In this document: in pieces, positions 16,183 to 16,256 of the stretch | Numbering within the stretch: the stretch's first letter is position 1 | How the letters are laid out: every line of letters begins with the position of its first letter | NCBI GenBank assembly: GCA_028282805.1 | Contig: JANQHD010000012.1 | Span: forward strand, 1-25,084 | Reading direction: 5' to 3' | Length of the DNA stretch: 25,084 bases | Source of the DNA: Phycisphaeraceae bacterium | GTDB lineage: Bacteria > Planctomycetota > Phycisphaerae > Phycisphaerales > Zrk34 | The notes under the pieces: model-generated | Database searches by the model: none | What the model was told of the DNA's origin: nothing | The model's input: only the letters and a program-made list of their open reading frames with translations | Position numbers and translations under genes: made by a program

Positions 16183-16256
16183 TACCGCCGGTAGGAGTCG
16201 AACCTACACTGCGCCGGGTCTGAGCCGGCTCCCTCTGCCAGTTGGGGTACGGCGGC
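16183..16256 (-). tRNA. Class-I (short variable arm) tRNA carrying the Leu anticodon CAG - non-canonical
   Basis: Acceptor GCCGCCG/CGGCGGT, anticodon arm GCCGG-CTCAGAC-CCGGC (perfect), T-arm GTAGG-TTCGACT-CCTAC, A73, 74 nt. Bacterial tRNA-Leu is normally type II with a long variable arm, and this gene has none. The D-stem is weak (CCC/GGG). Confidence 0.55.

Follow-up and report, generated by a model that had tools for sequence, protein, structure and literature searches.

A short-arm tRNA-Leu(CAG) in a planctomycetal tRNA array: a probable reader of CUG and its phage-associated relatives

A 25,084-nt stretch of DNA from a Phycisphaeraceae bacterium (assembly GCA_028282805.1, contig JANQHD010000012.1; referred to here, at its full length, as the window) contains an array of 30 tRNA genes, one of which, at positions 16183-16256, combines the leucine anticodon CAG with a variable loop of only 5 nt. 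This gene, the target of the present analysis, is probably a functional type-I tRNA-Leu that reads CUG, and its product is a predicted substrate of leucyl-tRNA synthetase (LeuRS). The short-arm form of tRNA-Leu is common in the tRNA clusters of phages and in the tRNA arrays of bacteria, and the target is not novel.

Structure and leucine-type body of the gene

The gene and its parts are the following, in window coordinates:

16183-16256, minus strand: type-I (short variable loop) tRNA-Leu, anticodon CAG, 74 nt, CCA not encoded (ARAGORN, Rfam, fold and the covariance model R2, see below)
16250-16256, minus strand: 5' strand of the acceptor stem, GCCGCCG (tRNA positions 1-7), pairing with 16184-16190 (CGGCGGU)
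16231-16247, minus strand: D-arm, 3-bp stem CCC/GGG and 11-nt loop CAACUGGCAGA (C13, A14, A15, G18, G19)
16213-16229, minus strand: anticodon arm GCCGG-CUCAGAC-CCGGC (direct reading and ARAGORN)
16208-16212, minus strand: 5-nt variable loop GCAGU, of which U48 pairs with A15
16191-16207, minus strand: T-arm GUAGG-UUCGACU-CCUAC with the canonical U54, U55, C56 and A58
16183, minus strand: discriminator A73

ARAGORN called the gene as a tRNA-Leu with the anticodon CAG, and the Rfam model RF00005 aligned with it over model positions 1-71 of 71 at 48.1 bits (gathering score 29, E=1.3e-7). On the tRNA strand, the 5' half reads GCCGCCG UA CCC CAACUGGCAGA GGG A GCCGG CUCAGAC CCGGC, and the 3' half continues with GCAGU GUAGG UUCGACU CCUAC CGGCGGU A. 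The acceptor stem is formed by 7 bp, a G1-U72 wobble and six Watson-Crick pairs, the anticodon stem is a perfect helix of 5 bp with the anticodon CAG at 16220-16222, and the 5-bp T-stem closes the canonical loop UUCGACU. The minimum free energy (MFE) fold gives the cloverleaf and places CAG in the anticodon loop; its z-score of -0.74 against shuffled sequences is uninformative because the sequence is GC-rich. ARAGORN, Infernal and the MFE fold agree, and no rival fold with a different anticodon, as envisaged in an earlier note on this DNA, was found among them. The 7-bp acceptor stem, the GCCGG/CCGGC anticodon stem with its loop CUCAGAC, the T-arm and A73 had all been described in that note and are borne out, on the minus strand; the variable region, given there as 4-5 nt, has 5 nt. 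The D-stem, described as weak, indeed has three pairs, but all three are G-C and the shape of the arm is typical of leucine tRNAs.

The class of the molecule follows from these elements. A type-II tRNA has a variable arm of at least 10 nt that forms a stem-loop, whereas the target has the 5-nt loop, and its 7/5 split and short loop also differ from the 8/4 or 9/3 split with a long variable arm of allo-tRNAs and tRNA-Sec-like molecules. The anticodon is none of those of suppressors (CUA, UUA or UCA), and the idea of a suppressor-like element is discarded because CAG reads the sense codon CUG. CAG is one of the leucine anticodons (NAG or YAA), and CUG is the commonest leucine codon (43%) in the open reading frames (ORFs) adjoining the gene.

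A 3-bp D-stem with the loop NAAYUGGYAGA is what we take to be the bacterial tRNA-Leu shape, and this assumption prompted a survey of D-arms and tests with covariance models. Among 2,822 tRNAs taken from 284 loci, the full signature (3-bp stem, NAAYUGGYAGA loop and one extra nucleotide before the anticodon stem) was present in 368 of 484 short-arm tRNAs-Leu, in 17 of 54 canonical long-arm tRNAs-Leu, in 3 of 157 tRNAs-Gln, and in none of about 2,100 tRNAs of the remaining isotypes. The possibility that the three tRNAs-Gln are mistranslators that combine a leucine body with a glutamine anticodon was considered and rejected, since U1-A72 and G73 identify them as ordinary tRNAs-Gln.

Two custom covariance models served as stand-ins for the isotype models of tRNAscan-SE. 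The model R1, built from 47 long-arm tRNAs-Leu only, ranked the target first of the 30 array tRNAs with 49.6 bits, despite an 8-nt deletion at the site of the arm, with a small margin over the long-arm tRNA-Tyr (48.9 bits) and tRNA-Glu (47.6 bits). Under the general tRNA model the target had come 25th of 28, and no tRNA other than the target and tRNA-Tyr gained under R1; the low general score is thus attributable to the Leu-type D-arm and not to damage. The model R2, built from 100 short-arm tRNAs-Leu with no CAG anticodon among its members, gave the target 75.3 bits (E=1.1e-19), compared with 55.3 bits for the best other array tRNA, Lys-CUU. Judged by its sequence, the target carries a tRNA-Leu body. 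The idea that it is a recent anticodon mutant of a neighbouring tRNA was rejected, as its highest identity to any other tRNA of the array is 69%, the ordinary background between tRNAs.

A covarying family in phages and bacteria

A search of viral sequences with a pattern that combined the fixed D-loop, the CAG anticodon loop and a short variable region retrieved 48 contigs, and 47 of the matches were full cloverleaves with the same layout as the target. When the pattern was relaxed to the anticodons NAG or NAA, so that the phenylalanine anticodons GAA and AAA were also permitted, at least 172 cloverleaf-valid viral sequences were found. All 172 of the matches listed had leucine anticodons (UAG 58, CAG 48, CAA 30, UAA 23, GAG 9, AAG 4) and none had a phenylalanine anticodon. 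At positions that the pattern left unconstrained, A73 and U48 were each present in 172 of 172 listed matches, U8 in 100% and C13 in 95%; G1-U72 occurred in 64 of them, and CCA was encoded by 99.

These counts bear on the proposal that the target is isotype-switched, that is, a class-I tRNA with A73 of another identity that acquired CAG by a one-base anticodon change and would insert an amino acid other than leucine at CUG. Candidate sources exist, as CAG is one substitution away from Val-CAC, Met-CAU, Gln-CUG, Arg-CCG and Pro-CGG, and A73 is common to tRNAs for valine and methionine as well. Deliberate mistranslating tRNAs have reportedly been described in bacteria in work on the Streptomyces tRNA-ProX. 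Nevertheless, such a switch is very improbable. The best identity of the target to its 29 array neighbours is that of the background, its D-arm geometry is specific for leucine, R1 ranks it first, the body was never combined with a non-leucine anticodon among the 172 listed viral matches, and the three glutamine look-alikes differ from it by U1-A72 and G73. The pair C3-G70 excludes alanyl-tRNA synthetase, and the missing long arm excludes seryl-tRNA synthetase (SerRS). In addition, the synthetases for valine, methionine, glutamine, arginine and proline read anticodon bases that are absent from the target, according to established identity rules (PMC9976931).

Covariation supports the cloverleaf of the family. 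In 100 diverse members, 97.4% of the cloverleaf cells were paired, compared with 58.8% in shuffled controls, and compensatory changes were present at 20 of 20 cloverleaf pairs; the covariation score was 0.993, compared with 0.218 for shuffled sequences and no more than 0.163 for slid pairs. The 3-bp D-stem was paired in 99.7% of cells, with compensatory changes at all three pairs. The target shares the layout of the family, i.e., the 7/5 cloverleaf, the 3-bp D-stem and the 11-nt D-loop NAAYUGGYAGA, together with C13, the 5-nt variable loop ending in U48, and A73, and it matches every conserved position of a family of 158 sequences. Bases that are rare in the family occur in the target only in the intact Watson-Crick pairs C10-G25 and G27-C43, and there on both sides of the pair, which indicates compensated change and not decay.

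It should be noted that at least two types of short-arm leucine bodies exist. One, to which the target belongs, has U8-A9, C13 and the loop CAAYUGGYAGA. The other resembles long-arm tRNA-Leu in U8-G9, G13 and the loop GAAUUGGUAUA, and has U-rich variable loops such as AUUUU. The presence of two body types suggests that the arm may have been lost repeatedly in the evolution of tRNA-Leu.

Because the earlier loci had been chosen for holding short-arm tRNA-Leu, an independent sample was drawn via an unrelated tRNA, Trp-CCA, and comprised 118 viral loci with 1,026 tRNAs. Here, 44 tRNAs-Leu had a long arm and 34 had a short arm (34/78, about 44%), whereas the corresponding numbers were 59 and 1 for serine and 31 and 3 for tyrosine. 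Arm loss is therefore frequent and specific for leucine. Both forms of tRNA-Leu occurred together at 43 loci of one set and at 8 loci of the Trp-CCA sample.

In bacteria, a scan of a genome collection with the CAG-specific pattern yielded at least 120 loci. The matches listed include Planctomycetota, Phycisphaerae, Myxococcota, Acidobacteriota, Verrucomicrobiota and others, as well as Nocardia, Kineosporia and Streptomyces of the Actinomycetota, and at 63 of the 120 listed loci (8 kb each) at least five tRNAs were present. The same architecture thus occurs in phage tRNA clusters and bacterial arrays; the earlier note had recommended a search in related islands. The first of the options given in the note, a Leu-like class-I tRNA, was right, but such a tRNA is not novel, as it has counterparts at hundreds of phage and bacterial loci and its leucylation has been demonstrated in Streptomyces coelicolor. 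A search of the literature, with subscription journals mostly outside its range, found nothing on the frequency of short-arm tRNA-Leu in phages beyond the papers on Streptomyces and Mycobacterium discussed below.

A separate observation concerns 25 of the 120 listed bacterial loci, which are tandem cassettes of two to four short-arm tRNA-Leu genes with differing anticodons, namely CAG and GAG with or without UAA and CAA. Besides these genes they contain no more than one tRNA, frequently a tRNA-Tyr or tRNA-Ser with a long arm, and are found in Planctomycetota, Phycisphaerae, Obscuribacteraceae, Acidobacteriota, Hyphomicrobiales and Kineosporia. No neighbouring gene, for example for a second LeuRS or a toxin, was common to the cassettes across lineages.

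Recognition by LeuRS and comparison with known systems

If the target is indeed used in translation, as we infer, it would be transcribed together with its array neighbours, its 5' end would be trimmed by RNase P, and the trailer beginning with UUG would be removed; CCA would then be added, since it is not encoded. The host LeuRS would charge it with leucine, and recognition would rely on A73 and on the core made up of the D- and T-loops together with the variable loop (U8-A14, A15-U48, G18G19 with U55/C56, and U54-A58), with neither the anticodon nor the long arm being needed. All of these elements, the complete set of E. coli-type leucine identity elements, are present in the target, and this set does not include the long arm. 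The charging enzyme, about which the earlier note was undecided, is thereby narrowed to LeuRS.

This proposal agrees with published identity rules. In E. coli, leucine identity resides in A73 as the major element, A15-U48, G18G19 and contacts of the D-loop with the T-loop, not in the anticodon and not in the long arm, and a minimal arm-less tRNA-Leu remains active (Giegé and Eriani 2023, PMC9976931). For SerRS, unlike LeuRS, the long arm is among the identity elements. Following these rules, the long arm would be dispensable for leucine only, because the bacterial LeuRS ignores the arm while SerRS and the bacterial tyrosyl-tRNA synthetase use it, and thus the serine and tyrosine tRNAs of the same clusters would be expected to keep their arms.

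The closest biochemical precedent is the type-I tRNA-Leu(CAA) of S. coelicolor, which has a 5-nt variable loop and is charged with leucine by the one LeuRS of the cell (Fan et al., NAR 2019, PMC6614811). Its kcat/Km is about half of that of the type-II form (6.25 versus 14.2 s-1 uM-1), the minimum loop for efficient leucylation is 5 nt including position 48, and U8-A14 matters for charging (PMC6614811). It resembles the target in the 5-nt loop (ACAGC versus GCAGU), A73, U8-A14 and G18G19, and differs from it in the anticodon CAA and in C48 instead of U48, the likeness being one of published features only. In addition, it is one of five isoacceptors known from genome mining and, unlike the target, has not been described in an array.

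A second precedent is the tRNA cluster of Mycobacterium mucogenicum and M. phocaicum, in which tRNA-Leu(UAG) has a short variable loop, in contrast to the long-armed isoacceptor of the chromosome; some tRNAs of the cluster are expressed, and the short-loop tRNA is mentioned in one sentence and not analysed (Behra et al. 2019, PMC6582537). This cluster is horizontally acquired and probably phage-derived and, like the array of the window, includes a short-loop tRNA-Leu. In contrast, it is actinobacterial, has 11-14 genes, the anticodon UAG, and an HNH endonuclease instead of the RtcB and SPFH genes described below. The earlier statement that all bacterial tRNAs-Leu are of type II is contradicted by these two studies (PMC6614811, PMC6582537) as well as by the family data.

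Short-arm leucine genes are also carried by Felix-O1-like phages, including Erwinia phage phiEa21-4, and by Mycobacterium phage Rey, and GenBank labels them tRNA-Leu. Erwinia, Salmonella and Hafnia phages of the Felix-O1-like group encode short-arm Leu(CAA) and Leu(AAG), in phiEa21-4 at 1494-1570 and 2031-2108. The Leu(CAA) of phiEa21-4 (EU710883) reads GGCGUAA UA UCC CAAUUGGCAGA GGA A ... UCAGU ... A CCA; it shares G1-U72, C13, U48 and A73 with the target and is about 81% identical to it over the core. The differences are that the genes of the Felix-O1-like phages and Rey encode CCA, have the anticodons CAA and AAG, and are located in lytic phage genomes. No relatives of the phage short-arm leucine gene were found in 5,426 complete E. 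coli genomes.

Canonical type-II tRNA-Leu shares with the target the 3-bp D-stem, the loop NAA..GGNAGA, A73, A15-U48 and a leucine anticodon, but has a variable stem-loop of 10-17 nt and usually G9 and G13 in place of A9 and C13. The tRNA-Leu of animal mitochondria, the sole exception to the long arm admitted by the 2023 review (PMC9976931), is likewise of class I with A73 and A14 as identity elements. However, it is AT-rich and structurally relaxed, has a dedicated mitochondrial LeuRS and no sequence relationship to the target family, and is not charged by the S. coelicolor LeuRS (PMC6614811).

The tRNA array and the possible reasons for arm loss

The target belongs to a horizontally spreading, phage-associated tRNA family, and it would be the single leucine decoder of an auxiliary array of 30 genes and 20 isotypes that contains an RNA-repair ligase. 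The array and its other features are the following:

10413-17628, minus strand: tRNA array, 30 co-oriented genes, all 20 amino-acid isotypes (ARAGORN 30; Rfam 28 plus His)
10491-10574, within the array: long-arm tRNA-Tyr
10675-10762, minus strand: tRNA-Ser(GCU)-like gene (ARAGORN call), long-arm, sole serine decoder of the array
11008-12603, minus strand: ORF for an SPFH/Band-7 protein inside the array (Pfam PF01145, 1.2e-30)
13261-14601, minus strand: ORF for an RtcB RNA ligase inside the array (Pfam PF01139, 3.7e-66)
16263-16326: 22-bp hairpin, 95% complementary, one of the GATGTGCGATC spacer repeats, located directly upstream of the target on its strand

The Rfam tRNA model retrieved 28 of the genes at the gathering score, and the His gene came from a local search. 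With 30 genes in 7,216 bp (4.2 per kb) on one strand, the array qualifies as a tRNA array unit by the published thresholds of 20 or more tRNA genes and a density of 2 or more per kb. Like the published units (Tran et al. 2015, PMC4758250; Yano et al. 2026, PMC12803027), which cover 19-20 amino acids with sequences unlike those of the chromosomal copies, it consists of co-oriented genes. In contrast to them, it is found in an uncultured high-GC bacterium, is bordered by GH2, FecR and PEP-CTERM genes, and is broken up by RtcB and SPFH. Almost none of its tRNAs encode CCA, and nearly all are directly followed by TT(G). The genes on its flanks are of the kind usual in bacterial chromosomes, among them a KDPG-aldolase-like gene, two GH2 glycosidases, a PEP-CTERM protein and an ECF sigma/FecR pair, and the GC content is 59-69%. 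No near-identical DNA for the 10-kb array was found in phage or plasmid collections, and nothing nearly identical to the target in the plasmid collection; the GH2 protein had an exact match only on a 10-kb Logan metagenome contig (run SRR20820739), which ends at the edge of the array.

Several members of the array are unusual. Even at E<=1, the Ser(GCU)-like gene is not recognised by the Rfam tRNA model. Its fold has an acceptor stem of 8 bp, a D-stem of 6 bp around a 5-nt loop, a long variable arm, a T-stem of 4 bp that closes the non-canonical loop AUCGUGC, and G73, and its modelled shape is 8/4, allo-tRNA- or tRNA-Sec-like, with a serine anticodon. The earlier remark that the island lacks bona fide leucine and serine genes therefore holds for leucine, as the target is the sole tRNA-Leu of the array, and for serine only if a canonical gene is meant. 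A tRNA-Pro with the unusual anticodon AGG (15176-15248, minus strand) duplicates the neighbouring Pro(CGG) (15019-15091, minus strand) at 83% identity; it has 68 nt according to ARAGORN, scores 44.8 bits in Rfam over 73 nt, and has G-G at positions 8-9 replacing U-A. A second tRNA-Asp(GUC) (12556-12635, minus strand) has 80 nt, the lowest Rfam score of the array (39.4 bits), and ends with CCACCA. Because it overlaps the 5' end of the SPFH ORF, the real start of that ORF is probably further downstream.

The spacers contain repeats (GGGGATGTGCGATC / GATCGCACATC) that form near-perfect hairpins of 21-22 bp at 12981-13041, 16151-16176 and 16263-16334, with one copy on either side of the Leu(CAG) gene. 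Between tRNA-Tyr and the Ser-like gene, at 10577-10670, there is another palindrome family (GTCTTGAG repeats). The spacer repeats of the array may be processing, termination or REP-like (repetitive extragenic palindromic) elements.

The RtcB ORF also matches the phage family PHROG 1075, 'tRNA splicing ligase' (4.7e-72), and its homology to relatives begins near residue 41, at about position 14481. Relatives are present in viral and metagenome contigs, the closest (79% identity) on the 2.4-kb metagenome contig Ga0315336_1044453. In both this contig and the window, a tRNA-Gly(UCC) is located directly upstream of RtcB, which suggests a conserved RtcB-tRNA module, and a few other RtcB relatives adjoin arrays of 13-33 tRNAs. 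The use of RtcB as a marker of related arrays was nevertheless abandoned as a weak link, with at least five tRNAs at 6 of 80 viral loci and at least ten at 4 of 80 metagenome loci.

The irregular array members raise the question of whether the target is a non-functional relic, i.e., a silent or uncharged pseudo-tRNA in a decaying, horizontally acquired array, the cloverleaf of which has not yet eroded. The low scores of Pro(AGG) and Asp 12556-12635 and the failure of the Ser-like gene would be compatible with such decay. Several observations weigh against a functional tRNA-Leu more generally. With 48.1 bits, the target has one of the lowest Rfam scores of the array. A search of the array for sigma-70-type promoters found none, although the type of promoter used by the host may differ. 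No orthologous copy of the target that could show purifying selection was found, its closest relatives being about 82% identical; a scan of metagenomes with a target-specific pattern gave 0 matches, and the 2.4-kb contig with the closest RtcB relative stops before the position of the leucine gene. In addition, neither the E. coli LeuRS nor that of S. purpurogeneiscleroticus charged the Streptomyces type-I tRNA-Leu, and the difference in charging between LeuRSs maps to the leucine-specific domain (PMC6614811).

Nevertheless, we regard decay of the target as improbable, as it bears no mark of it. Every conserved position of the family of 158 sequences is intact, the rare bases of C10-G25 and G27-C43 are rare on both sides of the pair, the score on the family model R2 is high, and the low general score is explained by the Leu-type D-arm. 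Moreover, the target is the only leucine decoder in an otherwise isotype-complete array. A functional tRNA-Leu thus remains the preferred reading.

A different question, compatible with a functional tRNA-Leu, is why the arm is missing. One proposal is that arm loss is an adaptive counter-defence, and that short-arm tRNAs-Leu evade nucleases or toxins of the host whose recognition depends on the long arm or on other type-II features; we consider this conceivable but rather unlikely. The same judgement applies to the extension that leucine cassettes and arrays, here together with RtcB, would be modules for the replacement of tRNA-Leu, or for backup and repair, in the conflict between phages and hosts. 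The enrichment of short-arm tRNA-Leu in phage clusters (34/78), the dedicated cassettes of two to four short-arm leucine isoacceptors at 25 of the 120 listed bacterial loci, and the location of RtcB inside the array are in line with these ideas, and so are the discussion of tRNA arrays as putative anti-defence systems in the literature and the example of the eukaryotic nuclease SLFN11, which selects type-II tRNAs by their arm. However, the analysis turned up no bacterial nuclease with specificity for long-arm tRNA-Leu, the PADLOC defence models had no matches near the array, and many phage clusters hold long- and short-arm tRNAs-Leu side by side. Arm loss could equally be neutral compaction that is permitted only for leucine, as LeuRS ignores the arm.

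For genome annotation, these results imply that short-arm leucine tRNAs in arrays and phages should not be flagged as pseudogenes, suppressors or recoding devices. Of more interest than the target itself is the wider pattern, that is, the high frequency of the short-arm form in phage clusters and the leucine-only cassettes of bacteria. The share of about 44% in phage clusters contrasts with the statement of a recent review that tRNA-Leu is long-armed everywhere save in animal mitochondria (PMC9976931). Furthermore, the E. coli LeuRS reportedly rejects the Streptomyces type-I form, yet enterobacterial phages encode short-arm leucine tRNAs; either the enterobacterial LeuRS accepts the phage form, or the phage genes are not used as leucine tRNAs. 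The loss of the long arm is not an accident of the target; mobile tRNA-Leu genes show it widely, and this has gone largely unremarked.

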